A stretch of DNA of 42,538 nt from an uncultured Candidatus Saccharibacteria bacterium (GCA_964493895.1 CAZBPY010000001.1:165245-207782); one strand, 5' to 3'. Counted from the stretch's first letter, positions 1-40,980 are shown. Notes: generated by a model from the letters alone, not told the origin. A program made the numbers and translations.

Positions 1-925
1 GCTGTATTCCATCTTTGGTGCCATACCCATCGGTTGATGCGGCATTGGAACCAACAATTGCTATTTTAGATGTACGTGGACCGATAGGAGATCCAAACCA
101 TAGTCGATAGAAGTATTCAAAATTATAGCTACCAGTGTAGTACAGGCCAGTGGTGCCGCGTCTAGGTAATCCGTATAGACCGTGTGGGTTGTTATAGGTG
201 TGAGGCGTATAGCAATACAAAGACGAGGTTGCGGCGTTTTCTATAAATACTGTAGCGTAATGCGTACCATTAGTGTCATAAAACCGTACATTTTGTCCAG
301 GATACAAGTTTGGTTTGTAAAGCGACTTTTCAGTTCCACAAACCCAGCCTGTACTGGTGTTCCACCATGTATTGTTGCCTCGAGCTCTCTCATAATGATA
401 TCGCAAGGCCCAAACACCACTATCAATCTGGTATGGGAAGGTGCTGTTGCCGCCACAACTTCCGCTAGTTGGGCAAGCATAACCCATAGCCTGATTAATT
501 TGCCAACTTGTTGGGTTAGGGGTCGTTATTAAGCTTTGTTCTTTTTGCAGTGTAGCCAAAATGGCTTTAGGGTTAACTCCATAGATTTGCGCAGCATAGT
601 AGATAATATGTGACGCTGGAATAGGGGTGTCGCAAGTAGCACCTGCAGCCGTATACCATTGGCGCTCCTTACTGCCCGGCCCGTAGCATTGAAGTACAAA
701 ACTCTTATTTTTGAGTCCTGAATTTTTTTGTACAAGGAACGCCTGTATATCTGCTGCGCTCATACTACCCGAGTCAAGGAAGACAGAATTGTCTATTAAT
801 CTACCTGCTTGGTGCGCATAGGTGGCAGGGGTTGAGGTGATTTGCTGTGCCAAAACAACAGCAAACAGCGCAAAAAACAGGAAGGTGTATTTAATAGCTT
901 GTCTTATAGTTGTCATTGTTCTCAT
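1..925 (-). CDS. Secreted protein (3'-truncated by the window edge), 'hemagglutinin-like'/putative lysozyme-like surface protein family; missing from the ORF track
   Basis: Hand translation from ATG at 925 is open to base 1: MRTMTTIRQAIKYTFLFFALFAVVLAQQ (signal/TM)...YGVNPKAILATLQKEQSLIT...AMGYACPTSG...IENAATSSLYCYTPH...GSYNFEYFYRLWFG. The ATG overlaps the TGA of the upstream gene (ATGA, 922-925). Confidence 0.85.
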   Translation of the reverse strand, partial: MRTMTTIRQAIKYTFLFFALFAVVLAQQITSTPATYAHQAGRLIDNSVFLDSGSMSAADIQAFLVQKNSGLKNKSFVLQCYGPGSKERQWYTAAGATCDTPIPASHIIYYAAQIYGVNPKAILATLQKEQSLITTPNPTSWQINQAMGYACPTSGSCGGNSTFPYQIDSGVWALRYHYERARGNNTWWNTSTGWVCGTEKSLYKPNLYPGQNVRFYDTNGTHYATVFIENAATSSLYCYTPHTYNNPHGLYGLPRRGTTGLYYTGSYNFEYFYRLWFGSPIGPRTSKIAIVGSNAASTDGYGTKDGIQ

Positions 926-1506
926 TTTAATCTAATTGGCACCTCTATATTACTGTACTCAGTACCGTCTGACCTAGTAGCGAATATATCAAGTCGTCCT
1001 TCCGTTGCTGTAGTAGACAGTTTAATATTGCCAGAGAAATTACCACCAACAACACTTAATTGACCAGTAGCTATAACGCCGGAGACATCATCAATAATCC
1101 GATAGTGTACTTTTGGCAGAGTGGATTTTCCTGAAATTTCTTGCCCTGACGAAATAAGACTATTAGCTTCGGGTAGATATAAAGTTATTTCGCCAGACGC
1201 TGAAGTAATTGGATTACTTGCGTCTGAACTGGGTGCTCCTGAATTGTCAGTTATCTCAGCCGATCCTCTACTGCCGTCGCTGATTGAAGGGTCTTTGTTT
1301 TCCTCTGTTGTACTATCACTATATTCTTCTTGAGCAGACGGTATAGTGCTTGTTGTTTTTGACGTTTCTTCAGTAGGAGCCCCCCTATTCACTAGGTTGA
1401 TAACACCCGTTCTTTCAAGTACTATACCCACGCACACTAGTACCAACACGACGAGCCCAACAATAATTATCTTTGGTTTTACTGATTTGCGCTTAATAAA
1501 TTTCAT
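922..1506 (-). CDS. Membrane-anchored protein: N-terminal TM, Ser/Thr/Asp-rich linker, C-terminal Ig-like (Gmad2-like) domain
   Basis: Start reassigned to MKFIKRKS (ATG 1506): basic N-terminus, hydrophobic IIIVGLVVLVLVCVGIVL, low-complexity linker, beta-rich C-terminus ITLYLPEANSLISS...GNFSGNI...GRLDIFA. Confidence 0.75.
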   Translation of the reverse strand: MKFIKRKSVKPKIIIVGLVVLVLVCVGIVLERTGVINLVNRGAPTEETSKTTSTIPSAQEEYSDSTTEENKDPSISDGSRGSAEITDNSGAPSSDASNPITSASGEITLYLPEANSLISSGQEISGKSTLPKVHYRIIDDVSGVIATGQLSVVGGNFSGNIKLSTTATEGRLDIFATRSDGTEYSNIEVPIRLK

Positions 1507-1646
1507 AGGATATAAAATATAAAGTTTAGTCTTTGTTTTTAACTTAGTACTAGAATTATAACATATATTGCAATCCAAAGCGTTAGCAATAGCCACAATA
1601 CTTGGCTGTATAGATTGCTGATAAAATTTAAGGTAACATATAAGAT

Positions 1647-2330
1647 ATGAAATTTATGGAAGTGGCTGTAATTGTACCCGTTTACAATGAGGTCAAGGTA
1701 ATTGCTGGCGTAGTAAAAAATCTTAAAAAGACCTTCTCCAATGTTGTTTGTGTTGATGACGGAAGTATTGACGGGTCAGCAAAAGAGATAAGTAAAGCCG
1801 GAGCAATACTCATTAAGCATCCCATAAACATGGGGACGGGAGCTGCATTGCAAACAGGCATTGAATATGCCAGGAGCATACCAAGCAATAAATATTTCGT
1901 TACCTTTGATGCGGATGGTCAGCACAAAGTAGAAGATGTAAAAAAGATGCTTGAAAAGATGGAAAAAACAGGTGTAGATATTGTAATGGGGTCGCGTTTT
2001 CTTGGCAAAACAGAGAATATTTCTAAAACAAAGAAAATTGTGCTGAAGCTAGCCATTAAGTTTAGTAACTTTACATCTGGAATTAAGCTTACAGATACGC
2101 ACAATGGCTTGAGAGTATTTAATCGCAAGGTTGCGGAAAGAATGCAGATAACAATGAGCGATATGGCGCACGCTTCTGAAATACTGGAGATAGTAAGAGA
2201 AAATAAATTCAGCTACAAGGAAGTGCCTGTGACAATAGTGTATACAGATTATTCCAAGTCAAAGGGTCAATCAGTGTTAAACGCTATCAATATAGCATTT
2301 GATGTGCTGCTAATGAGATTATCGCGATGA
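1647..2330 (+). CDS. GT2 glycosyltransferase (DPM1-like polyprenol-phosphate glycosyltransferase)
   Basis: IVPVYNE, CVDDGSIDG, NMGTGAAL, TFDADGQH, VMGSRF, DTHNGLR motifs. Confidence 0.93.
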   Translation: MKFMEVAVIVPVYNEVKVIAGVVKNLKKTFSNVVCVDDGSIDGSAKEISKAGAILIKHPINMGTGAALQTGIEYARSIPSNKYFVTFDADGQHKVEDVKKMLEKMEKTGVDIVMGSRFLGKTENISKTKKIVLKLAIKFSNFTSGIKLTDTHNGLRVFNRKVAERMQITMSDMAHASEILEIVRENKFSYKEVPVTIVYTDYSKSKGQSVLNAINIAFDVLLMRLSR

Positions 2331-2668
2331 TTATACAGGCGTTACTCATTGTAGTTTCTATATTTATACTCTTTTACTTTTTGACAAATAGAAATACGAT
2401 GCAGGTTAGGGCTTATAAAAAAATAGCACTACTGCTGTGTGTGGCGTTGATGATCGTTTTCGTTTTGTACCCCGAATACCTTAATACTATTGCTAACAAG
2501 GTGGGAGTAGGCAGGGGTGCGGATCTGCTTTTGTATGTGTTTTTTGTAGCGTTTATTATTTTCAGCATTAATGTTTATCTGAAATTTAAAGAACTACGAG
2601 ATGAGATTTTTCGTTTATCCCGGACCATTGCTTTAATAGAAGCTAAAAATGATAAGAAAAATAAATAA
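2327..2668 (+). CDS. DUF2304 family membrane protein (GacJ/Rv3632-like partner of GT2)
   Basis: Three TM segments, VGVGRGADLLLY signature, C-terminal coiled segment ending LSRTIAL; ATGA overlap with the GT2 gene. Confidence 0.88.
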   Translation: MIIQALLIVVSIFILFYFLTNRNTMQVRAYKKIALLLCVALMIVFVLYPEYLNTIANKVGVGRGADLLLYVFFVAFIIFSINVYLKFKELRDEIFRLSRTIALIEAKNDKKNK

Positions 2669-3050
2669 CTCACTTATCAAGTATTTGATTGCCGGAGGCG
2701 TTGCATTTGTAACCGAGTACTCTATATTTATCTTGCTTTTTAGTGTTATCGGTATCGGTGTGCTTTTTGCTAATATGCTGGCATTTGCATGCGGTATATT
2801 AACAAGCTTTACTTTAAACCGCAGCTGGTCATTTAAGAAAAGCGTGTTCCACTATGCTAAAACCACCCAGGCTGTGTTATATGTAATGTTAGCCATTACA
2901 AACCTTGGCTTGACAAGTTTTGTGCTAAGCATGTCAAGAGCAATAGGTATTAGAGAAGAAATAATAAAACTACTAATGATGGGCGCGATTGTTGTGTGGA
3001 ACTTTTTAATTTTCAATAAGGTAATATTCAAGCAAAAGGCTATGGACTAG
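2649..3050 (+). CDS. GtrA family membrane protein (lipid-linked sugar translocation)
   Basis: KYLIAGGVAFVTEY, SFTLNRSWSF, WNFLIFNKVIF; about 4 TM segments, 133 aa. Confidence 0.88.
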   Translation: MIRKINNSLIKYLIAGGVAFVTEYSIFILLFSVIGIGVLFANMLAFACGILTSFTLNRSWSFKKSVFHYAKTTQAVLYVMLAITNLGLTSFVLSMSRAIGIREEIIKLLMMGAIVVWNFLIFNKVIFKQKAMD

Positions 3051-3055
3051 CGACA

Positions 3056-4405
3056 CTATTTGATTCTTCCCACAGCGTCAAACCTAAGTCCAGTACCTTC
3101 TAGTGAATTTTGGCTTATGCAGTTATCTGCATCATATATTAAATCGCCGTGCATAACTTTTTTGATGCGGTCATAATCCATTTCCTTAAATTCGGACCAA
3201 GCGGTTGCGATGATTAGAGCATCTGCTTTTGAGGCAGCACCTAAGACAGAATCGCATACTTCTATGGCTTTGTTTAAATCTCTTTTGGCTTCGCCATTGG
3301 CATACGGATCATATACCGAAACAGATGCCCCAAACTTGCTTAGTAAGTTTGCAATTTTAACACCAGGAGATCTGCGGGTGTCACTAGTACCTGCCTTGAA
3401 TGAGAGTCCCAATACGGCTACCTTTTTGTCTGCAAGGCTGCCGCCTAGCATTTCTTCTACACGACTGGCTATGTAGCCAGGCATGCTGTCGTTAACCTCG
3501 GTAGCAGCAGTCATAATTGGCATGTCGATACCATATTCGGCAGAGCTGCTAATCAGGCCTGAAACGTCCTTAGGGAAGCAACCGCCACCATAGCCGCGCC
3601 CAGCATTAAGGAAAGCTCGACCAATGCGCTTGTCAACACCTACAGCATCCATAACTTCTACTACGTCCGCATGCACTTTATCGCAGAGCTTGGCAATTGA
3701 GTTGGCGAATGAAATTTTTAGAGCCAAGAACGCATTGGCTGTAACTTTAATAAGTTCTGCACTCTCAAGCTGGGTGATGATATATTCGCCATTATGTTTT
3801 TTTAGTTCGTGTGCAATATCGAGTCCTATTATTTTTGCTATTTCAGGCGCACGCTCTTCTATAGTTTTGTACAGATCTATAACTTTTCTTATAGCCTCTT
3901 GATCATCCCCGCCTGCTACAACTCGGTCAAAAAGAAGGGTGTCATATATGGCTGTGCCTTCACGAAGAAATTCTGGGTTTGATACATAAGCTTGTCCTTT
4001 GGGTAGAAGCTCAATAACTTTTCCGCCAGTACCAACTGGCACGGTGCTTTTCTGTATATAAACAGCAGTTGGCTTCAAGTATTTTGCGGCAGTCTTGGCT
4101 GCCTTAAAAACATATTGCAAATCGGAACTTCCATCGGTATGATCAGGTGTTGCTACGCAAGAAAATACAAAATCAGCGTTTCTTAGTGCCTGTTCATAAT
4201 CAGTAGTTGCGGTTAATCTATTTTTTTCTATACCTGCGGTTATAGCCTTATCTAATCCATTCTCAAAAAAAGGAGCTCCACCGCTATTAATTACCTCTAC
4301 CTTGCTGGCGTCTATATCTAATGTAACTACCTCATGATCTGCTAGAGCGAATAACGCCGCAACGGTTGTACCAACATAGCCGCCACCAATAACTGTTATA
4401 TTCAC
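3056..4405 (-). CDS. ugd: UDP-glucose/GDP-mannose dehydrogenase family protein
   Basis: GGGYVG Rossmann motif, KSTVPVGT, SNPEFLREG, GYGGGCFPKD, LSFKAGTSDTRRSP; GTG start. Confidence 0.95.
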   Translation of the reverse strand: MNITVIGGGYVGTTVAALFALADHEVVTLDIDASKVEVINSGGAPFFENGLDKAITAGIEKNRLTATTDYEQALRNADFVFSCVATPDHTDGSSDLQYVFKAAKTAAKYLKPTAVYIQKSTVPVGTGGKVIELLPKGQAYVSNPEFLREGTAIYDTLLFDRVVAGGDDQEAIRKVIDLYKTIEERAPEIAKIIGLDIAHELKKHNGEYIITQLESAELIKVTANAFLALKISFANSIAKLCDKVHADVVEVMDAVGVDKRIGRAFLNAGRGYGGGCFPKDVSGLISSSAEYGIDMPIMTAATEVNDSMPGYIASRVEEMLGGSLADKKVAVLGLSFKAGTSDTRRSPGVKIANLLSKFGASVSVYDPYANGEAKRDLNKAIEVCDSVLGAASKADALIIATAWSEFKEMDYDRIKKVMHGDLIYDADNCISQNSLEGTGLRFDAVGRIK

Positions 4406-4411
4406 GTTTAG

Positions 4412-5275
4412 CTATCTCCTTGCAATGCCCAAGAGGTAATTGCCGTATCCAGACTTTGTAAGCGCTTTAGCCTGTTCTATTAATTGATCCTGGCTAATCA
4501 ATCCTTGTTCAAAGGCTATTCGTTCAGGGCTGCCGATTATTTGCCCGGTACGTTTTTGTATGACTCTGACATAATCTGTAGCGTCACTAAGACTGTCTAT
4601 TGTGCCGGTGTCTAGCCATACATCTCCATCATCCAAAGTTGTAACTTTGAGTTTGCCGCGATTGGAGTACTCCTCATTTATTGAGGTTATTTCTAGCTCG
4701 CCTCGTTCACTCGGCTTTACGTTTTTGGCTATCCCAACCACATCATTGTCATAGAAGTAAAGCCCGACAACTGCATAATTGGATCTTGGATTGGTTGGCT
4801 TTTCTTCTATTGATACGGCATTCATATTGTCATCAAATTCCACTACACCATAGCGTTCAGGGTCGTTTACTTGATAGGCAAAAACAATGCCGCCGTCAGG
4901 ATCGGTGCACGTTTGCAGGGAGTCATCCAAATCTGCTCCATGAAAAATATTATCCCCAAGAACTAAAGCCACTTTATCGTTTCCAATAAATTCCTCGCCT
5001 ATTATAAACGCTTGTGCTAATCCATCTGGAGAAGGCTGAACGGCGTACTGAATATTAATACCCCACTTGGATCCATCTCCAAGCAGTTGTTGAAATTGTG
5101 GTTGATCTTCAGGGGTGGTTATTATCATGATATCTTGTATCTTTGCCTGCATGAGCGTGGCGAGAGGATAGTAAATCATCGGCTTGTCATAGATCGGTAT
5201 TAATTGCTTGCTAATACCTCGGGTGATTGGATGCAGCCTGCTGCCACTTCCACCGGCTAAAACTATACCCTTCAT
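4412..5275 (-). CDS. rmlA: Glucose-1-phosphate thymidylyltransferase
   Basis: [18 protein letters not shown]...[41 protein letters not shown]. Confidence 0.97.
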
Positions 5276-6129
5276 GACGATACCTCATTGCGTATATATT
5301 CTGCTAGATCATCCATCCAACTACGAGATTTGAAGCCGGATGATTGTATCTTATCAAGTTTGAGAGTACTCTGCAGGGGTCGCCGGGCAATACCAGTTTT
5401 GCCATGGTAATATTCCTCGGTGGATGTGTCGGTTACTTTCAAATCAAAGCCAGCATCAGCAAATATTTGTCTGGTAACTTCTGCCCAACTCACTGATTCA
5501 CCATCATTAGTAACATTGTAGGTGCCAAAAGGCGCCCCATTCGTTAATAGATGATCGATAGCTCGCACTAGTTCGCTAGTAAAAGTTAAGCGGCCAATCT
5601 GGTCGGAAACGACTGTTGGGCTAACACCTTTTTGACCAAGACCCAACATGGTTCTAACAAAATTTTTGCCTTCGCCAATCACCCAGCTGGTGCGCAGGAT
5701 ATAGAACTTATCTAGCTGTGATATCAGTAAATCACCGGCAGCCTTACTGGCTCCGTAGACATTTAATGGAGCAAAATCCTCATCTTCATCGTGCGCTGAC
5801 TGACTGCCGTCAAAGACATAGTCAGTAGATATATGTACTACTATCAGGTCGTTCTCCCAGGCAATATGGGCTAAGTTCTTGACGGCCTCGGCATTAACTT
5901 TCCAGGCAGCTTTGCGTCCCTCTTCGGTTTCAGCTCCATCGACATTTGTATATGCTGCTGCATTGATAACCACCTCGACATCAGACCAGTCAAAATTATC
6001 AACCGATTCTTTATTGGTGATATCCAGTTCGTCAATATCGGCGAATTGGGCTTTAGGATACTTAGCTCGTAAAGCTAGGCCTAGCTGTCCATTGGCTCCA
6101 ACAATAAAAATTTTTGAATCGTCCATCAT
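5272..6129 (-). CDS. rmlD: dTDP-4-dehydrorhamnose reductase
   Basis: [39 protein letters not shown] (YxxxK), LRTSWV. Confidence 0.95.
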
Positions 6130-9096: not shown

Positions 9097-10189
9097 GTTG
9101 CTTGCTGTCGATAAACTCACGCATGTTGGTTTGGAATTTTTCCGGGCTGAACAGTTCGGCTTCGCGGCGGATGACGGCCGAGTCAAACTTGTGACGCGGA
9201 AAATCTTCCAAAGCCCGGCGCAGCGAATCAACTGATTGTTCATCAAAGAACAAGCCGGTTTTGCCGGGATGAACGTAGTCCAGGGCGCCGCCGTCCTTGA
9301 AGGCTATCACTGGCGTGCCGGCGGCCATGGCCGCCACTGGCGAGATGCCAAAGTCATCCAAGCCAGGAAAGATGAAGGCTTCAGCAGATTGCAGTAAATC
9401 AACAATCTCGGTGTCGGAAACATAGCCTTTGAATTTTATGGTCGGACCGGCCATGCGTTTTAGTTTGCCGGTTTCCGGACCGGTTCCTAAAACATTCAAT
9501 GGCAGGCCTAATTGTGTACAGGCCTTAATAGCCAGGTCGAATCTTTTATACGGCGTGTGCCGCCCGGTAATGATAAAACCGCTGCGTTTTTGCTTGCCGC
9601 GTAAATACTTATCGATTTCTACCGGCGGAAAAATCACCGTTGAGTCGCGTTTGTAATATTTCTTGATAGCGCCTTGAGTATAGGTTGAATTGGCAATCAT
9701 GTAATCTGGCCGCTGAGCGGCCTTTAGGTCCCAACGTCGCATTGGTCCAACCAATAACCTTAAACCCAGTCGGCCAAGTGGATTAGAAATTCCCCAGCCT
9801 GGCTGCTTCATATATTCGTCATAGCGCATCCAATAATAATGAGTAGGTGCATGGCAGTAATTAATATGGAGCGTAGTTTTAGGAACCTTGATGGCTTTGG
9901 CTTCGGCGCCCGAACTGCTGATCACTAGGTCAAAATCGGCCAAATCCAGGCTTTCAAACCAAAACCGCCGCAGCAATGGCAGCATCTTGCGCAATTTGGA
10001 AAATGGCCACAGCTGCAGATAGCCGGTGATCACTTTATTATCAAGTTTGCGGCGCCATTCCTCGGTGCAATAGGAAGTGTAAATCGGAGCCTCTGGGAAC
10101 ATCTTGTGCAGTTGTTCGACGACCTTTTCGGCGCCGCCTTGCAGCAACCAGTCATGAACAATCGCTACCCGCGGCTGCTTGATGGCCAT
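9089..10189 (-). CDS. GT4 glycosyltransferase
   Basis: AIVHDWL..GGAE, NYCHAP, IANST, DDFGISPVAAMAAGTPVIA (variant of the EX7E motif). Confidence 0.93.
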
Positions 10190-10191
10190 AT

Positions 10192-11631
10192 TTAGTATCC
10201 TCGGCCGCTTAAGACTACCCGAATGGTTTTTAGCAGAATAACTACATCAAGCCAGAAGCTCCAGTTTTGGACGTAGTAGAGATCGAGTTTGCGGCGCTCT
10301 TCAAAAGGTATATCGCGCCGCCCGGAAATTACCGCCAAACCTGTCAGGCCAGATTTTACGCTCAGGATGGTGTGGCGCTTTTCGTAACTGTTTAGTTCAG
10401 CGGGCACCAAGGCTCGGGGCCCGACTAGACTAAGATCACCCTTAACTACGTTGATAAGCTGCGGCAGCTCGTCAAGGCTAAGTTTACGCATAAATCGCCC
10501 CAGCGGTGTAACCCGGAAATCTTTCTTTAACTTATCACCATTCTTGCGGTATTCCTCTATGAGTTCTGGCTTGCCAACCATTTTGAAAACTTCCTCGTAT
10601 GATTTGCCGTCAAACTTAGCATAGTGGGTTCGAAGTTTGTAGATCTTAAAAACTTTATTAAAGCGCGTTAGACGGTTTTGTTGAACTCCTCGCATAAAAA
10701 CTGGACCGCTCGGATCAGTAAGCTTGACTAAAATGGCCAGGATCAAAATTATCGGTGAAGCTAGGATCAGCAAAATTGTGCCAACAACCAGGTCGAACAG
10801 GCGCTTTACAATTCGGCCCCAACCAATCAAGGCAGTTTGATGAATGGCAATCATCGGGATCGACGATTGGAAAAGCTCGACATCAATATTACCGACAAAC
10901 AGTTCCGAATTCCCTGGAATAAATCTGTACGACACATGATTGTTTTGAGCGAATGTCAACACCTCGTTGTTTTTACTGGAGCTGCTGAAAAGTTCGGTTT
11001 GCATGATGCTGTGAATGTTTTTGACGCCGATCTTTTCGACCGCATCATTGAAAGTGGAGAAGTGTTTCATTTTTGGCAAGCGCTCGTGGCTGCCGACAAT
11101 ACCAACCACTCGGTAGCCGGAGATCTTTGGTTCGGATAGCCATTCCACCAACTCTTGGGTAGCAACGGTATTGCCGACAATCAGGACGTTGCTAATTCCC
11201 AGGTTGTAAGCAAACAGCCAGCGGCGGACAACCCTAGCGGTATTTCTAAACAACACCAAGTAAACAAACGTCAAACCCATTCCGTAGACCGGAATAAGTT
11301 TGGCCGGAAAAATCACATCATTACTGAAATATTCAAAGCCGACAATCAGCAGAGTGCCGATTATAGTCCCCACGATTAGCCGGCCCAATTCGCTGAATCG
11401 CTTTTCATAAATGGACCGATTATATAAACCGATAAAAGCGAACACCACTAGCCAGAGAGGCAGCAGAGCCAAAGTGACAAGCAGGAAGGTTCGGGCACTA
11501 ACCGGATTAATTATCGGCACGTCGCTGTAGGTAACTCTCAGTAAGTAAGCACTGACGAAAGCGGCTACCAGGGCTAGGACATCAGTAAAAATTAAGGCCA
11601 AACTGTACAGCAATGAAGCATTGTTCTTCAT
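10192..11631 (-). CDS. Undecaprenyl-phosphate sugar-1-phosphate transferase (priming GT, WbaP/WcaJ/CpsE-like)
   Basis: N-terminal TMs, Rossmann-like middle, [50 protein letters not shown]; start MKNNAS (11631). Confidence 0.95.
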
Positions 11632-37077: not shown

Positions 37078-37153
37078 GGGGCGGTAGCTCAGTGGTTAGA
37101 GCAGTCGGCTCATAACCGATTGGCCGAAGGTTCAATTCCTTCCCGCCCCACCA
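37078..37153 (+). tRNA. tRNA with CAU anticodon (probably Ile2/lysidine; elongator Met not excluded), CCA encoded
   Basis: Acceptor GGGGCGG/CCGCCCC, D-arm GCTC/GAGC, anticodon arm GTCGG-CTCATAA-CCGAT, T-arm GAAGG-TTCAATT-CCTTC, A73, CCA. Not fMet (no C1:A72, no three G:C pairs in the anticodon stem). Confidence 0.95.
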
Positions 37154-37163
37154 CGCAAACACT

Positions 37164-37508
37164 CTATACTTTGCTGAAGAGTAAACAGACCATTTTCTTT
37201 CTGAGTACTTCTGATCTTTGTTGATCTGATCCTTCACCTAAATACATACCTTTAGCTTCTGCAGCAGGCAAGTAATTACTTACTTGCTCATAAAGGTTGG
37301 TCTGGTTTGTACTTAGCACACCATTCGGGGCCAGGATATAAATAACATCATAACCAAGCGGTAATTCTGAAGTTTCTTCACCAATAACCATTGTAGGCAT
37401 TTCTCCCAGTGATTCTGCGAAACGATTTGCCCTGCCCATTGTTTCAGGTGATCCAATTACTAGAACGTTTGTGTTGCGTATATCGTGGTTGAAATCTATC
37501 GGTATCAT
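37164..37508 (-). CDS. Cassette 1: hypothetical small alpha/beta protein (114 aa)
   Basis: Open frame; NVLVIG and DVIYILAP strands; start MIPIDF has TGaTAAACT 7 nt upstream. Confidence 0.65.
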   Translation of the reverse strand: MIPIDFNHDIRNTNVLVIGSPETMGRANRFAESLGEMPTMVIGEETSELPLGYDVIYILAPNGVLSTNQTNLYEQVSNYLPAAEAKGMYLGEGSDQQRSEVLRKKMVCLLFSKV

Positions 37509-37537
37509 CAGGGGTAGTTTATCAAGTGCTGTATTGT

Positions 37538-37690
37538 GGTTCAACGCTCTTTACCCTGTACCGCCAGCTCTGTTCAATTTGCACTAGGCCAGCTTCTCGA
37601 AGTTGCTTTGACCAATCAGATTTAGAGTTCGCTATCAACCACTCCGCGACAGTACCGAGAGGTTCAAAAGTCTTCGCTTTATCGCCACCA
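37538..37690 (+). repeat. Array repeat copy 1 (153 bp; 11-nt deletion removes the peptide stop codon)
   Basis: GGTTCAACGCTCTTTA ... GGTTCAAAAGTCTTCGCTTTATCGCCACCA. Confidence 0.93.
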
Positions 37691-37697
37691 CGGATTT

Positions 37698-38288
37698 TTA
37701 ACCACCGAGGCCAACTATTACCTCAATTGACCGACAATCATCGCCCTGGACACCTTCTTCAAAGTAGTGAATCCTTGAGTCCGCAGTTCCGTTAACGCCT
37801 GATGGTTCTAAATCAGATAGGTATGCGATTGCTTCACTTTTATGCTCGGGAGCAAGGGCCTGCATGGCATAACCAGATAGACAATCTGCGATTGCTTCTC
37901 GACGAGGACGAGTGGTTTCGATTTCTTGGCTAGTTACGTGTCCAAATTCATGACCAACGATAAAGTCAATTACACCATCAACTTCATCACCGTAGGTTTC
38001 TGCAAGAAAATCGAGAAACTTCTGCGTAAACTCAATGGTTGGTCCGCCATGCTCTTCTGGCACAAAGCAAGCATTAGCAAGCTTTCCGTTTAAGCAAGCT
38101 CCTGCATCATCTTCATCAAGCATATCAAGCTCAACATCAGTAGCATCTACACCACGGCTGACCCAGAAATCTTGATACCGCTCAAAGGCAGAGTCTAAGA
38201 TCGCTTGTGGTTTATCGCATGGGGCCGCTTCGCTACTTACACCAGCTAGGAGGGCGGTTGCTATAAGAACAGGAGCAAGTTTTCGCAT
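37698..38288 (-). CDS. Cassette 2: secreted neutral zinc metallopeptidase (YpfJ-like)
   Basis: Signal peptide; NACF, VGHEFGHV (HExxH), REAIADCLSG, GTADSRIHYFEEG. Confidence 0.82.
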   Translation of the reverse strand: MRKLAPVLIATALLAGVSSEAAPCDKPQAILDSAFERYQDFWVSRGVDATDVELDMLDEDDAGACLNGKLANACFVPEEHGGPTIEFTQKFLDFLAETYGDEVDGVIDFIVGHEFGHVTSQEIETTRPRREAIADCLSGYAMQALAPEHKSEAIAYLSDLEPSGVNGTADSRIHYFEEGVQGDDCRSIEVIVGLGG

Positions 38289-38334
38289 TAAATCTATTTT
38301 TTCACCGCATCGCTATAATGCAAGCATAAGCTTA

Positions 38335-38498
38335 GGTTCAACGCTCTTTATCTTACTCTTTTCTAGTACCGCCACATCTGTTCGACTGTAACCCTTGACA
38401 TCTCTTCCAACTGATTTGTCCAGTCAGGATTAGGGTGAGCAATCAGCCACTCTACGACAGACTTCAAAGGTTCAACACTCTTCGCTTTATCGCCACCA
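38335..38498 (+). repeat. Array repeat copy 2 (164 bp, intact)
   Basis: GGTTCAACGCTCTTTATC ... GGTTCAACACTCTTCGCTTTATCGCCACCA. Confidence 0.95.
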
Positions 38499-38541
38499 CA
38501 AAGTATTGCATTTTACATATAACTATGTTAAAATAATAAGC

Positions 38542-38805
38542 ATGGCACGATCGACAGCCGCACAGTCAGAGTTAGTCACGGTTCGTCTTACTGGCGATGA
38601 TATAACTACTGCAAAAGAACTAGCAATGATTGCTGATGTTACTGGCTCAAACTTCTCTAGAGAGGTACGGGCTGGTTTACAGATGCGATTAGATCAAATC
38701 AGACAAGATCCTGCAGACAGAGCGGCTATTATAGCTGGGGTTGTCGAGCAGCACAGGGTAGCTGAAGAGTTTTTGGGTGAAGAAATACATATACCTAGAA
38801 GCTAG
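38542..38805 (+). CDS. Cassette 3: small putative DNA-binding protein (ribbon-helix-helix-like)
   Basis: Beta-like LVTVRLT followed by two amphipathic helices; TTGCAT...TAAAAT promoter 7 nt before the ATG; the stop codon TAG overlaps repeat 3. Confidence 0.65.
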   Translation: MARSTAAQSELVTVRLTGDDITTAKELAMIADVTGSNFSREVRAGLQMRLDQIRQDPADRAAIIAGVVEQHRVAEEFLGEEIHIPRS

Positions 38806-38968
38806 GTTCAACGCTCTTTATCTTGTAGCTAATTAGTACCGCCAACTCTGTTCAATGGTCACCGAACCAGCTTCTTTGAGCTGTAATGACCAGGCGGGAC
38901 TAGGGTTCGCAATCATCCATTCCACAACAGAACTCAAAGGTTCAAAACTCTTCGCTTTATCGCCACCA
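38805..38968 (+). repeat. Array repeat copy 3 (164 bp, intact)
   Basis: GGTTCAACGCTCTTTATC ... GGTTCAAAACTCTTCGCTTTATCGCCACCA. Confidence 0.95.
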
Positions 38969-39011
38969 GATTCCACTGTCCGTTTCATCGTAATAGTGCT
39001 AATGTATACTC

Positions 39012-39707
39012 ATGGATAATCAACAAAATATTGCCCCTCAAACTCAAACTCAAACTGATCAAAACCTAAACCAACCAAAGCAGCCCCAGAATAAAAAGAA
39101 AATCATAGTAGTCTCACTCATTGCAATCCTAATTCTAGCTGCATTCGGGGGCTTATACTATTGGCAAAACAGCAAGAATAAAAATTTGCAAAAACAACTG
39201 GATGCTACAAAGGCTCAATTAGAAAAACAGCAAACTAAAACAGAGGTTAATGATATTCCAACCACGAAAGCACCTGTTGATCCTAACTATGCAGGCTGGG
39301 CACAAGTGACAAACGAAACCTTAAATCCAAATCAAATAGCACTTTACAAGAACGGCACAGCAACATTATCTGTGTATAGTAAAGAACCCATGATGAACCT
39401 AAGCTCTAATGCTCCTGGATACTGCACACTACAGAATGAGGCGTGGACACCTTCTGATAGGTGTAATAGTAGCATTACTGAGTCGACAGTTAATGGCATG
39501 AACGCATATACGGCATATGGAGGAGCTCTCGGCCGAACTAAATACTTAGTAGTAGTCCAGAGCAACAATCAGTGGTTCGTCTTTAGTGACTATCTTGATT
39601 ATGACCCAGATCCAACAAAGGACTCTAATGTAGAAATAAACCAGGACAAAGCTCAACTAGCAAGTTCAATGGAAAAGCTCGTTGCCAAAGTACTTCCGCA
39701 AAATTAG
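39012..39707 (+). CDS. Cassette 4: bitopic surface protein (Gln/Asn-rich tail, TM, coiled coil, small extracellular domain with a Cys pair)
   Basis: KKKIIVVSLIAILILAAFGGLYYW TM, then KNLQKQLDATKAQLEKQQ heptads. Confidence 0.82.
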   Translation: MDNQQNIAPQTQTQTDQNLNQPKQPQNKKKIIVVSLIAILILAAFGGLYYWQNSKNKNLQKQLDATKAQLEKQQTKTEVNDIPTTKAPVDPNYAGWAQVTNETLNPNQIALYKNGTATLSVYSKEPMMNLSSNAPGYCTLQNEAWTPSDRCNSSITESTVNGMNAYTAYGGALGRTKYLVVVQSNNQWFVFSDYLDYDPDPTKDSNVEINQDKAQLASSMEKLVAKVLPQN

Positions 39708-39709
39708 AT

Positions 39710-39839
39710 TTAGTATCTCCACACCTGTTCAATCTGCACTGAACTTGCTCCTTTGAGCTGTGACACCCATCCAGGCTAGGGTTAGAAATCAGCCAATCAA
39801 CTACACTAGCCAAAGGTTCAAAAACACATCTTTTTCACC
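39710..39839 (+). repeat. Array repeat copy 4 (degenerate: left site lost, -1 frameshift, CCACCA end eroded)
   Basis: Minus strand reads FEPLASVVDWLISNPS /frameshift/ GWVSQLKGASSVQIEQVWRY-stop. Confidence 0.88.
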
Positions 39840-39953
39840 TTCAGTAATTTTATAGGCTTGTTTCTTGCTATCCATGCGGTCTTTGTTATTTCGTAAAATT
39901 ATGCTTTTACGACAACTTTGAATAAACGCTGCATCAAGCTTATAGTTATGTGT

Positions 39954-40457
39954 ATGAATGAAACACTAGATCAACCAAGAGAACACATAGATTTATCAAC
40001 TGATGAGTACACGGCTGCATTTGCTGCTGCTCCGCTTTATGCTAAGAAGTCTCTAGTTAAAATGAGAGCTGCAACACCAGGTGAAACTATTGTCACAAGG
40101 CTACAGGATGGCACAGTGGAAACCACAAACACAGCTGGTAAAAACCAAGTTGTTGTTACAAATCTTGGTGGTGAGGAGTATATTATCGATGCTGATAAGG
40201 CTGCTAAGCGTTATGAAGAAACAGATGAACCTGGCGTCTTTAGGGCAACAGGCATGGCAAGAATTATAGATAACCCTACTGGAGGTGACGTAAGCGTGAC
40301 GGCTCCTTGGGGTGAAGAGCAGCTTGGAGCGGCTGACTGTAAGTTTGCTGCACTCTATGATCCAACTCAGCCAGAGGTGGTAAGCGACGACCGCTATATA
40401 TTGGGTGCTGCCGAGTTTGCAGAAACCTACGGTCTTGTCGAAGAAGTGCTGGGATAA
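39954..40457 (+). CDS. Cassette 5: PGDYG-like protein with an internal tandem duplication
   Basis: Two halves ending GGEEYIIDADKAAKRYE and DDRYILGAAEFAETYG; TATAGT 7 nt before ATG 39954. Confidence 0.7.
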   Translation: MNETLDQPREHIDLSTDEYTAAFAAAPLYAKKSLVKMRAATPGETIVTRLQDGTVETTNTAGKNQVVVTNLGGEEYIIDADKAAKRYEETDEPGVFRATGMARIIDNPTGGDVSVTAPWGEEQLGAADCKFAALYDPTQPEVVSDDRYILGAAEFAETYGLVEEVLG

Positions 40458-40465
40458 CAAGCCTA

Positions 40466-40489
40466 GGTTCAAAGCTCTTCGCTTTATCG
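40466..40489 (+). repeat. Array repeat copy 5 (collapsed single site)
   Basis: ctaGGTTCAAAGCTCTTCGCTTTATCG; left-site flank joined to right-site core. Confidence 0.85.
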
Positions 40490-40560
40490 TCTACGTGTCA
40501 AAATTTTAACGGTTTAATCGATTAACGTGCAGTACCCTTAAGAATGTAAATAAGGAGACT

Positions 40561-40953
40561 ATGATGGCTCAACCAACCCACAAGGTAAAAGAGACTACTA
40601 CACGGGCCGGCGACACGGTTCAGAAAACGACCCAAGTTCAAGATGGTGCTGCTGGGGAAGAACATGCTACCACCGTGGTGGATCGAGTTATTTGGCTGGT
40701 GGCCGGACTTCTAACAGTCATTCTGGCTTTTAGGTTTGTGCTGGCATTGTTGGGAGCCAATCCGGAAAATGCTTTCGCCAACTTCATTTACAGTCTTTCC
40801 AGTCCGTTGGCAGCGCCATTTTTTGGGTTGTTCAGTTATGATAGCACCTATACGGGCGTTGGCCGCTTTGAATTTTTCACCCTGGTGGCCATAGCTGTCT
40901 ACCTGGTTATAGCCTGGCTAATTTCCAGAGTCATCACTCTGAACCAGGCTTAG
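40561..40953 (+). CDS. YggT family membrane protein
   Basis: RFVLALLGANPENAFANFIYSLSSPLAAPFFGLF; AGGAG SD. Confidence 0.85.
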   Translation: MMAQPTHKVKETTTRAGDTVQKTTQVQDGAAGEEHATTVVDRVIWLVAGLLTVILAFRFVLALLGANPENAFANFIYSLSSPLAAPFFGLFSYDSTYTGVGRFEFFTLVAIAVYLVIAWLISRVITLNQA

Positions 40954-40980
40954 ATCAAAACTCTTTGCTGCACCATCAAT

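Follow-up and report, generated by a model that had tools for sequence, protein, structure and literature searches.

The closest known system to the locus described here is the staphylococcal SCC composite island. In SCC and SCCmec, a large serine recombinase (LSR; CcrAB or CcrC) inserts the element at one fixed site, the 3' end of rlmH (orfX), the target gene is spared, and elements accumulate as tandem arrays, with a recombinase site in the direct repeat that bounds each of them; many of the cassettes have no recombinase of their own and depend on one acting in trans (PMC11470126). Integrons also carry ordered, mostly single-gene cassettes, with a conserved site-bearing element that starts at or next to the cargo stop codon and with new genes joining at one end, but depend on the tyrosine recombinase IntI, whose gene adjoins attI and a Pc promoter, and on imperfectly palindromic attC sites folded into single-stranded hairpins. 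The SSV-type integrases and the mycobacteriophages with integration-dependent immunity use tyrosine recombinases, target tRNA genes, and have attP within the coding sequence of the element. Integration changes the encoded protein: SSV-type archaeal integration splits int close to the 5' end, leaving it inactive, while in the mycobacteriophages the repressor is truncated. Split-gene remnants mark old integrations. Finally, accreted tRNA islands, such as the tycheposon-rich islands of Prochlorococcus, are hypervariable, with successive integrations separated by att-derived repeats and many degraded, integrase-less remnants. Their repeats are partial tRNA copies and their enzymes are mostly tyrosine recombinases.

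The window analysed here (the whole stretch of DNA, 42.5 kb, from an uncultured Candidatus Saccharibacteria bacterium) contains a tRNA-anchored array of one-gene units separated by a repeat of about 165 bp, which is probably the attR-side (right-end) remnant of a family of LSR elements. This level of confidence applies to the identity of the repeat, and to neither route by which the array may have formed. As tandem, recombinase-less cassettes with repeats, the units resemble SCC in organisation, not by homology; the LSR of a related locus (L015, see below) gives weak matches to the NCBIfam models for CcrB, CcrA and XisF, below their curated cutoffs (50 bits against a cutoff of 900 for CcrB). 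Unlike SCC, the target is tRNA-Met, the host belongs to the Saccharibacteria (Patescibacteria) lineage, the units are 0.5–2.3 kb with one or two genes (15–70 kb in SCC), a single LSR takes the place of the CcrA/CcrB pair, and the repeat would include the C-terminal coding tail of the recombinase itself, because attP would lie inside the LSR gene. Compared with the SSV-type and mycobacteriophage systems, the recombinase is of the serine type, and just the last 44 LSR residues would be exchanged, for a stub of 4–5 residues. The repeat also differs from those of the tycheposon-rich islands in being a probable attP-type LSR half-site joined to an LSR coding tail. In contrast to integrons, attI is lacking, the cassettes have their own promoters and lie in either orientation, and the anchor is a tRNA gene. 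The term ‘integron-like’, used in a preliminary description of this DNA, holds as an analogy only, since no IntI tyrosine recombinase and no attC hairpin takes part.

Five units, each with a single ORF (c1–c5), follow the 3' end of a tRNA-Met gene recognised by both ARAGORN and Rfam, and are bounded by four repeats of about 165 bp and one 30-bp stub (Table 1). The preliminary description had recognised this array and its five repeat-bounded units; the units are indeed five, but the fourth repeat is decayed and the fifth is a stub, leaving R1, R2 and R3 as full copies. Spacings from CCACCA to CCACCA are exactly 537, 808 and 470 bp for the first three units, as given previously, and about 867 and 655 bp for the last two. 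The position of cargo stop codons close to, or overlapping, the repeats could likewise be verified. The cargo genes are mutually unrelated. The names proposed for them are supported in part only: c2 has an HExxH motif but no Pfam match, c5 has a weak PGDYG match below the Pfam cutoff, and ‘RHH-like’ and ‘alpha/beta’ are unsupported. The whole c2 unit is inverted, and its promoter end (AGCTTATGCTTGCA, 38320–38333) adjoins motif A of R2, while a promoter-like TTGCAT-17-TAAAAT lies upstream of c3, immediately 3' of the CCACCA of R2. Within the 42.5-kb window the 31-nt motif B occurs three times at no more than one mismatch (0 expected), and its 14-nt core seven times (0.24 expected), with all copies on the plus strand and confined to 37.5–40.5 kb. 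In agreement with the earlier statement that no integrase lies nearby, no recombinase was found in Pfam scans of the larger ORFs from about 10.2 to 42.3 kb, nor did an LSR query match anywhere in the window by tblastn.

Table 1. Features of the tRNA-Met locus and its array (positions in the 42.5-kb window)
Feature	Position	Strand	Remarks
tRNA-Met(CAT)	37078–37153	+	ARAGORN; Rfam RF00005, 76.7 bits; 3' part GGTTCAATTCCTTCCCGCCCCACCA = probable attB-type left half-site, GGTTC to CCA 25 nt
c1	37164–37544	−	126 aa; no family match; stop codon 10 nt from tRNA CCA
R1	37536–37692	+	motif A 37537–37557; motif B (probable attP-type half-site) 37660–37690
X1	37558–37689	−	probable LSR-tail frame of R1; reads on into motif A because the spacer and stop codon are deleted
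c2	37698–38288	−	196-aa secreted protein; HExxH motif; no Pfam match; stop 7 nt after CCACCA of R1 motif B
R2	38333–38500	+	motif A 38334–38358; motif B 38468–38498
X2	38363–38497	−	GGDKAKSVEPLKSVVEWLIAHPNPDWTNQLEEMSRVTVEQMWRY*; no start codon upstream
c3	38542–38805	+	87-aa ORF; TAG stop = first triplet of R3
R3	38803–38970	+	motif A 38804–38828; motif B 38938–38968
X3	38833–38967	−	chance upstream ATG gives a 51-aa ORF, 38833–38988
c4	39012–39707	+	231-aa membrane-anchored protein; orthologous to L002 cassette gene (50% identity)
R4	39708–39835	+	decayed; motif A absent; X4 frameshifted; motif B degenerate (AGGTTCAAAAACACATCTTTTTCACCTTCA)
c5	39957–40457	+	166 aa; weak PGDYG match (E=7e-5), below Pfam cutoff
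R5	40464–40495	+	terminal stub, end of array; P-type motif B only (TAGGTTCAAAGCTCTTCGCTTTATCGTCTACG)
Right flank	40561–40953	+	YGGT-like membrane protein, outside array; 70% identical to array-flanking gene in L004

The repeat consists of motif B, a version of the tRNA 3'-end motif GGTTCAA...CCACCA stretched by 5 bp; a frame of 44 codons on the minus strand, X (GGDKAK...EQSWRY*), which had been missed in the preliminary description; and a short motif A. Across about 27 copies from 11 contigs the units are sharply bounded, with homology beginning at (T)AGGTTCAAC and ending with ...TATCGCCACCA. In relatives, intact or decaying LSRs are found at this locus, with X at the opposite end or fused to them in frame. 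In L015, an intact LSR of 521 aa (Resolvase, 1.7e-22; Recombinase, 8.8e-8; Zn_ribbon_recom, 8.8e-5) reads into the same tRNA-Met, its end (...ATEFQSGG|GGWI*) falling inside the tRNA 3' end, and 3.5 kb from there, at the opposite end of the element, are an X tail (MIKSGG|AEATSFEP...QAYRY*) and its B-type site. L017 has the same layout, but at tRNA-Leu. The array of L007, which belongs to the window's own GGDKAK family, includes an LSR ending in ...SEFQLGG|, and is ordered as tRNA, c1-AXB, a Fic gene with a P-type site, and LSR; LSR-less units therefore sit between the tRNA and a resident LSR element. Three junction states are all present among database ORFs: an LSR end with a tRNA-coded stub (ARERT*, GGWT*), an LSR end with an X-type tail in frame (P0019, P0030, P0031, P0042, P0047, P0066, P0070), and unrelated sequence with X. 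Counting against the explanation proposed below, no complete LSR running without a break into an X tail, which would be the true attP form, was found; the in-frame LSR-X ORFs all encode LSRs that are truncated at the N-terminus and lie at chromosomal junctions. Contigs such as L015, with the LSR at the tRNA and the tail at the far end, explain the minus-strand frame in the repeat. From the anatomy of the repeat and the LSRs of relatives, the array in the window would therefore be a row of attR-type remnants of LSR elements. With LSRs in relatives and none in the window, it is a derivative of such elements and not a complete member, and LSR activity in this genome is unproven because the 42.5-kb window holds no LSR. 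The accretion of cassettes suggested earlier is supported by the repeat as the attR side of an integrative family, and by the LSRs at tRNA-Met in L015 and L007.

Half-site geometry points the same way. GGTTCAA and CCACCA are 25 nt apart in the tRNA and 30 nt apart in motif B, an offset found in four diverged subfamilies (including those of the window, L015, L017 and L018). The zinc-ribbon motif of LSR sites lies 5 bp further from the centre in attP than it does in attB (PMC3783163), and the offset between tRNA and motif B matches this rule. L015 and L017 each show a clear attL and attR; the window shows recognisable left halves of attR type only, with no conservation of the sequence 3' of each CCACCA.

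We propose that Saccharibacteria harbour small integrative elements moved by an LSR, with attP inside the 3' end of the LSR's own gene. In the free element the LSR frame (...KEPFASLV..E(F/M)..GG) would cross attP and continue for 44 more codons, X (DKAKSFEPL..VEWLIANPxPDW..QLKEA..EQSWRY*), to a stop codon followed by motif A. The LSR would pair attP with the 3' end of tRNA-Met, strand exchange taking place within or beside the shared CCACCA, which would therefore leave the tRNA intact. After integration the LSR gene would abut the tRNA and end in a tRNA-encoded stub of 4–5 codons, and X would be left, together with the attP-type left half-site (motif B), at the far end, beyond the passenger genes. 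In the window, five of these far ends would follow one another, each carrying a single passenger gene under its own promoter and no LSR, so that the locus would record repeated site-specific gene capture. Its units were probably added in succession, each at the tRNA-proximal site; they may have arrived LSR-less by means of an LSR acting in trans, or have lost the LSR module by a site-specific event. As attP would lie inside the LSR gene, the tail would be replaced by the stub on integration, an exchange through which the free and the integrated element may differ in LSR activity. The limited literature searched gave no report of an LSR gene that spans attP.

Some features of the arrays count against this explanation. 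About 25 array units of the window's family have left ends exactly at CCACCA, without LSR fragments and with no conserved right half-site among them; such exact, LSR-free ends would not be expected from random decay. Canonical LSRs require two half-sites and do not take attL as a target, and tandem growth at the tRNA requires relaxed target choice. The gradient of decay is inconsistent, affecting the distal repeats in the window and the tRNA-proximal ones in L002. Motif A is kept across subfamilies, and has no role in the proposed mechanism.

Related genomes carry from 1 to 8 units at this locus, with almost entirely different cargo, between conserved flanks (Dus-HxlR-FMN reductase-tRNA-Met on one side, YGGT or DivIC on the other). 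Neither content nor unit number is invariant, and the locus is a variable island. The c4+R4 unit has a counterpart in L002, a Saccharibacteria MAG, where its neighbours differ on both sides and homology stops at the unit; the L002 orthologue of R4 also lacks motif A, and has an in-frame stop.

A sub-case of the LSR explanation, rather than an opponent of it, is that the units are themselves mobile, in the manner of an integron built around a serine recombinase: cassettes without an LSR (cargo, A, X, B) would be excised as circles and inserted tRNA-proximally by an LSR from another locus, either chromosomal or part of a resident element, which would rely mainly on left half-sites. This is a tenable but tentative proposal. 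It is favoured by the exact unit boundaries, by the absence of LSR debris from the arrays of the window, L001, L002, L004, L005 and L006, by the LSR-less units between tRNA and resident LSR in L007, and by the occurrence of the c4+R4 unit among different neighbours in two genomes. A precedent exists in SCC-like cassettes without a recombinase, which are mobilised by CcrAB or CcrC (PMC11470126). Against it, there is no conservation at the left ends of the units, from which the right half of the att site would come in a circle, and the shared cassette has diverged about as much as core genes (50% identity versus 58%), so that old vertical inheritance fits as well as transfer. In a more speculative form, which we consider rather unlikely, an ultra-small epibiotic bacterium would possess a serine-recombinase version of the integron: at the tRNA-Met 3' end, an LSR working in trans would insert and remove cassettes of one gene with its own promoter, using essentially one half-site per partner and a built-in state sensor, the conserved 44-residue helical tail that is swapped for a tRNA-encoded stub. 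If true, the tail swap would switch LSR directionality or activity, without or alongside a separate directionality factor.

The frame X is open in 17 of 27 copies, with a pN/pS of about 0.48, entropies of 0.75, 0.60 and 1.06 at the three codon positions (codons 11–44), and the remaining minus-strand frames closed. Gene callers annotate it as an ORF of 46–60 aa, and AlphaFold2 predicts two short helices (mean pLDDT 72). It could be taken for a small protein gene in its own right, such as one for a regulator or antitoxin, duplicated together with intergenic DNA to form the array by tandem duplication and divergence. This is improbable. An in-frame start codon lies upstream in just 3 of the 17 intact copies, none of the intact copies has a conserved ribosome-binding site, and circularising each unit in silico supplies no start codon. 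X is C-terminal in all 25 of its relatives among 1.84 billion representative proteins (46–98 aa), their N-terminal extensions being unrelated junk or the C-terminus of an LSR read in frame. X is coding sequence, yet no gene of its own. The cargo genes are unrelated, so duplication does not account for the array.

Still less probable is an ordinary tyrosine-integrase island, in which repeated partial tRNA 3' ends would mark decayed tandem islands. The 3' ends of tRNA genes are classic integration targets, and motif B shares GGTTCAA and CCACCA with the tRNA. These two stretches are all that is shared, however, and with 5 extra nt motif B is no tRNA fragment: it cannot pair with the acceptor 5' strand GGGGCGG, and is called a tRNA by neither ARAGORN nor Rfam. 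The repeat as a classical tRNA-fragment copy was rejected accordingly, consistent with the earlier remark that it is not an exact copy of the tRNA 3' end. The recombinases at these loci are serine recombinases, and neither the window nor the annotated loci showed a tyrosine recombinase. A structured RNA or single-stranded DNA site (attC-like), a terminator or insulator, or a MITE spread between genes is hardly credible: the repeat is intergenic, regularly spaced and uniform in size, but has no conserved fold (as noted before, it is not attC-like; the RNAalifold consensus of 16 copies has −2.7 kcal/mol and 1 compensatory pair), no matching Rfam family, no terminal inverted repeats and no inverted repeats within units, its substitutions show codon periodicity, and in collection-wide scans it was not scattered: the genomes or contigs with the repeat had it at a single locus each, which proved to be this tRNA-linked site in every case where flanking sequence sufficed.

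Judged from sequence comparison, the array is very probably a row of attR-side ends of large serine recombinase (LSR) elements, attR being the far end of an element and attL the LSR end that lies against the tRNA. Each of these ends is, on this reading, a promoter, a passenger gene and a repeat made of motif A, frame X and motif B. The serial integration proposed in the preliminary description, in which related elements each left a right end plus one passenger, is thus essentially right, and what was called an att-like element can now be named as an attP-type LSR half-site together with the recombinase's own C-terminal coding tail.

Five units lie 3' of tRNA-Met, each with a single ORF (c1 to c5) and each closed by a repeat (R1 to R5). 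The spacing from CCACCA to CCACCA is 537, 808 and 470 bp, then ~867 and ~655 bp. In the 42.5-kb window the 31-nt end motif has 3 copies at <=1 mismatch (0 expected) and the 14-nt core 7 copies (0.24 expected), all on the + strand and confined to the 3.4-kb array stretch. The cargo stop codons described earlier (two at 7-10 nt from a CCA, one overlapping the repeat) agree with the ORF calls, and the reported absence of a nearby recombinase holds for the larger ORFs scanned over ~10.2-42.3 kb of the window. No strain-level variation was seen: the only other sample with window genes, SRR9016294 (contigs L020 and L021), matches the window at 100% identity. Right after the stop of the YGGT-like gene, TAGATCAAAACTCTTTGCTGCACCA looks like a short-spacing half-site; it is missing at the same position in the related contig L004, and could be either coincidence or a relic of great age.

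Coordinates of features in the window and in related contigs (L numbers)
Feature	Contig	Position	Strand	Remark
tRNA-Met(CAT)	window	37078-37153	+	Rfam 76.7 bits
R1	window	37536-37692	+	
R2	window	38333-38500	+	
R3	window	38803-38970	+	
R4	window	39708-39835	+	decayed
R5	window	40464-40495	+	30-nt stub
YGGT-like gene	window	40561-40953		right of array end; also right flank of array in related genome
TAGATCAAAACTCTTTGCTGCACCA	window	40951-40975		
Motif A	window	37537-37557, 38334-38358, 38804-38828		
A-like motif	L015	~10160-10195		
AATGCTTATGCTTGC	L001	8443-8456, 9427-9440		right after CCACCA
AATGCTTATGCTTGC	L007	2629-2642		right after CCACCA
AATGCTTATGCTTGC	L010	1725-1738		right after CCACCA
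AATGCTTATGCTTGC	window	38320-38333	minus	inverted beside motif A of R2
Second-type half-site	L007	~1315-1345		
Second-type half-site	L010	~1739-1777		
Second-type half-site	L001	7846-7876		inverted
LSR called as two ORFs	L017	12508-13990		
ISDNNGGRIEL ORF	L015	11688-11903		
ISDNNGGRIEL ORF	L017	10608-10760		
ISDNNGGRIEL ORF	L010	3814-3945		
HTH_23-like gene	L017	11856-12287		
HTH_23-like gene	L023	168-602		
Group I intron in tRNA-Met	L004	12431-12621		
Group I intron in tRNA-Met	L006	11937-12132		
Group I intron in tRNA-Met	L007	3615-3828		
HNH-like ORF	L006	12124-12567		
Inverted array	L001	8459-10182		upstream of tRNA-Met
Array	L002	3300-11900		

When ~27 repeat copies of the window and of ten related contigs are aligned, the borders are sharp on both sides. 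Homology starts at (T)AGGTTCAAC, the TAG at the repeat start very often doubling as the stop of a cargo gene on the + strand, and stops at ...GCTTTATCGCCACCA; the right end of a unit reads ...CGCCACCA. The full repeat has three parts: motif A (AGGTTCAACGCTCTTTATCTTACTC, then ~10 nt); frame X, 44 codons on the minus strand (GGDKAKSFEPL..VEWLIANPxPDW..QLKEA..V.IEQSWRY, then a stop); and motif B (AGGTTCAAAACTCTTCGCTTTATCGCCACCA), which codes for the first ten codons of X. Motif A lies just beyond the stop codon of the LSR tail and holds GGTTCAA at the short (attB-type) spacing. Distant LSR-bearing subfamilies (L015, L018, L022, L023) retain an A-like motif at the equivalent place. The repeat has no conserved secondary structure (RNAalifold, 16 copies: -2.7 kcal/mol, one compensatory pair) and no matching Rfam family, and X lies on the strand opposite to the tRNA-like motif, which together exclude a tmRNA-like or tRNA-like RNA.

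Frame X is coding sequence, yet it is no free-standing gene. It is open in 17 of the 27 copies despite ~35% amino-acid divergence, with a pN/pS of ~0.48; entropy over codons 11-44 is 0.75, 0.60 and 1.06 at codon positions 1, 2 and 3, highest at the third, and neither of the other minus-strand frames is open. Codons 1-10 coincide with motif B and hardly vary at any codon position, a constraint at the DNA level. An in-frame upstream start before a stop is present in only 3 of the 17 intact copies (window R3 among them, by chance), and a circle does not supply one, since joining B of each unit to its own left end gives no start codon. A word-indexed search of 5.8 billion proteins found X in only five small ORFs, and a full HMMER scan of 1.84 billion representatives in 25 ORFs of 46-98 aa, where it is always C-terminal, behind unrelated N-terminal extensions. 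As a known domain it finds nothing in Pfam, PHROGs, NCBIfam or PADLOC, and PDB sequence matches are at chance level (E > 0.2); the viral contigs of IMG/VR hold no relative. An orphan-toxin or silent-cassette model, with a conserved C-terminal piece recombined onto an expressed gene, was rejected, as no full-length parent was found except the LSR. Cargo and X as one fused protein are out, most cargo being on the opposite strand and the c2 stop out of frame with the X of R1. The coding signature would reflect selection that acted on the tail while it was part of functional donor elements, and the array copies of X would be fossils of different ages.

The parent gene is seen in the extensions before X. 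In the database ORFs P0019 and P0026 these read ...RAGSAIEKDRV.RILFLNL..DNEK....W.EPF.SLV..IE.S.G, and in L017 an extension of this type is the C-terminal end of a Resolvase-domain recombinase, which runs ...ENSDG/ARERT-stop (slash, junction) into the 3' end of tRNA-Leu, with an X-type ORF at the opposite end of the insert, 3.7 kb off. Further LSR copies were found by tblastn with the L017 recombinase. L015, where a Mur ligase gene, tRNA-Met and DivIC follow each other in the same order as in the window's relatives, encodes an intact 521-aa protein with Resolvase, Recombinase and zinc-ribbon domains, whose last codons (...ATEFQSGG/GGWI-stop) overlap the tRNA-Met 3' end; its X (MIKSGG/AEATSFEP...QAYRY-stop), which has its own B-type site and A-like motif, is 3.5 kb from the LSR, behind two membrane-protein genes. 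L007, of the window's own GGDKAK family, has an LSR ending ...KEPFASLVALSEFQLGG at the junction within its array. Database ORFs show the three junction states expected: attL, with the LSR end followed by a tRNA-encoded stub (ARERT, TDERT or GGWT, then a stop); attP-like, with the LSR end in frame with an X-type tail (P0019, P0030, P0031, P0036, P0042, P0047, P0066, P0070); and attR, with X behind unrelated sequence. The in-frame fusions are all truncated LSRs, no full-length LSR with an X tail being found among these ORFs. The invariant junction glycine corresponds to the CCACC of CCACCA.

LSR genes of this family are often called as two ORFs (L017; also P0065, P0072, P0081 and P0084), C-terminal LSR ORFs of ~169 aa recur in the database, and the L017 gene has a frameshift in the zinc-ribbon region; pseudogenes, homopolymer assembly errors or slippage could each account for such split calls. 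In L015 and L017 the LSR is accompanied by a small conserved ORF, also present in L010, which ends ...KLNxTxISDNNGGRIEL, has no family match and may serve as a directionality factor or regulator. A further gene of the elements specifies an HTH_23-like protein of ~143 aa (L013, L017, L023). In L013 its N-terminus is joined directly to X (P0014), which points to an internal deletion that took out the LSR.

From GGTTCAA to CCACCA there are 25 nt in the tRNA versus 30 nt in motif B, and four diverged subfamilies share this offset (L015, L018, L017 at tRNA-Leu, and that of the window); the P-type sites of L022 and L023 likewise measure 30 nt. Serine integrases have their zinc-ribbon-domain motif 5 bp nearer the crossover in attB than in attP (Rutherford et al., PMC3783163). 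By this rule motif B would be a left half-site of attP type, and one of attB type would be formed by the tRNA's T-arm and acceptor 3' strand; since CCACCA is common to both, the tRNA would be restored after exchange. The aligned units have no conserved right half-site, and AATGCTTATGCTTGC was rejected as a universal one, as it follows CCACCA in only 4-5 of ~25 units and overlaps a -35 box. Its inverted copy next to motif A of R2 suggests that the c2 unit, with a Zn-peptidase-like gene, is an inverted cassette. L007, L010 and L001 also have a second kind of P-type half-site (GGTTCCAT..CCAAGT..CCCACCA or GTTTCAAATAACTTAAGTGCAGCTCCACCA), which codes for another tail, likewise truncated (GGRHLDGMEP, GGDDLVAMEP or GGAALKLFET), and which abuts the LSR in L007.

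Units of the window family have their left border exactly at CCACCA, and no LSR debris is present in arrays of this family. In a second subfamily (L022, L023, L017) the LSR decays in the ordinary way and its remnants can still be seen. The resident LSR element of L007 is separated from the tRNA by two LSR-less units. In L010 the ISDNNGGRIEL ORF is at the tRNA-proximal contig edge, ahead of LSR-less units, which suggests an LSR element beyond the contig end because this ORF goes with the LSR elsewhere. Both layouts fit a model in which a trans-acting LSR inserts units at a site already occupied, much as recombinase-less SCC cassettes are mobilised by a recombinase in trans (PMC11470126). The absence of a conserved right half-site counts against it.

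The relatives in the genome collection are all uncultured Candidatus Saccharibacteria, and the flanks of the locus are kept (Dus, HxlR, FMN reductase and tRNA-Met on one side, YGGT or DivIC on the other). As expected of cassette accretion, content varies among them, from 1 unit (L005) through 2-3 (L004), 3 (L001) and 4-5 (L006, window) to 8 (L002), and the opposite possibility of a repeat scattered genome-wide was not borne out, collection-wide scans finding it at a single locus in each genome or contig. Relatives have almost no cargo in common, with only two homologous pairs. In one of these, c4 and an L002 gene, the cassettes align from ~20 nt past the preceding CCACCA to their own B motif and have unlike neighbours to left and right; in each of the two, X is broken and motif A is missing, which suggests an old shared unit decaying in place. 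The decayed repeat copies of L002 are those nearest the tRNA. L001 has its array inverted; next to the FMN reductase gene the array ends in a P-type site of 30 nt, also inverted, and the L001 tRNA-Met 3' flank seems unoccupied (CCACCA followed directly by AGAGAAATGCGCTAGTTTTGATAC). The array-anchoring tRNA-Met is interrupted by a group I intron in three relatives (Rfam 54-66 bits), adjoined in L006 by an HNH-like ORF, and ARAGORN misses these tRNAs because of it; the window tRNA-Met is intron-free.

Tandem accretion at a fixed site by an LSR, recombinase-less cassettes included, is shared with SCC islands and is already known from them. New here are the use of a tRNA gene as target in a Patescibacteria lineage, units that are very small and have one gene each, and an attP that appears to lie inside the LSR gene, so that integration would swap a conserved 44-residue tail for a tRNA-encoded stub and the protein would differ between free and integrated states. 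No report of an LSR gene spanning attP was found in the searchable literature. If the tail controls activity, this would be a new way of setting directionality in LSRs. These enzymes are widely used in genome engineering, and the sites described add candidate attP/attB pairs of natural origin, whose tRNA target is conserved. Saccharibacteria have tiny genomes and few described mobile elements; here a clade of them appears to maintain a dedicated gene-capture hotspot at tRNA-Met, and an enzyme family and recombination sites are named for a puzzling 'integrase-less' cassette array.

Cargo in the related arrays (L002, L006, L004, L007, L018) includes an APH kinase, an ABC-F-like double ATPase, P-loop kinases (AAA_33 or Zeta-like), NT5C, RNHCP, an AlaX-like editing domain, a C39-like peptidase, Fic, EamA and an HATPase_c_2+DUF4325 pair. 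None of ten cargo proteins scanned matches a PADLOC defence model. The set is possibly an accessory one for resistance or interaction, the candidates being APH, the ABC-F-like ATPase, the P-loop kinases, Fic and the peptidases. Elsewhere in the window, positions 900-5300 are low in GC (36-39% vs ~47%) and encode a family 2 glycosyltransferase, GtrA-like small membrane proteins, and UDP-glucose dehydrogenase-like and RfbA-like enzymes (names from reading translations); this looks like an ordinary surface-polysaccharide locus.
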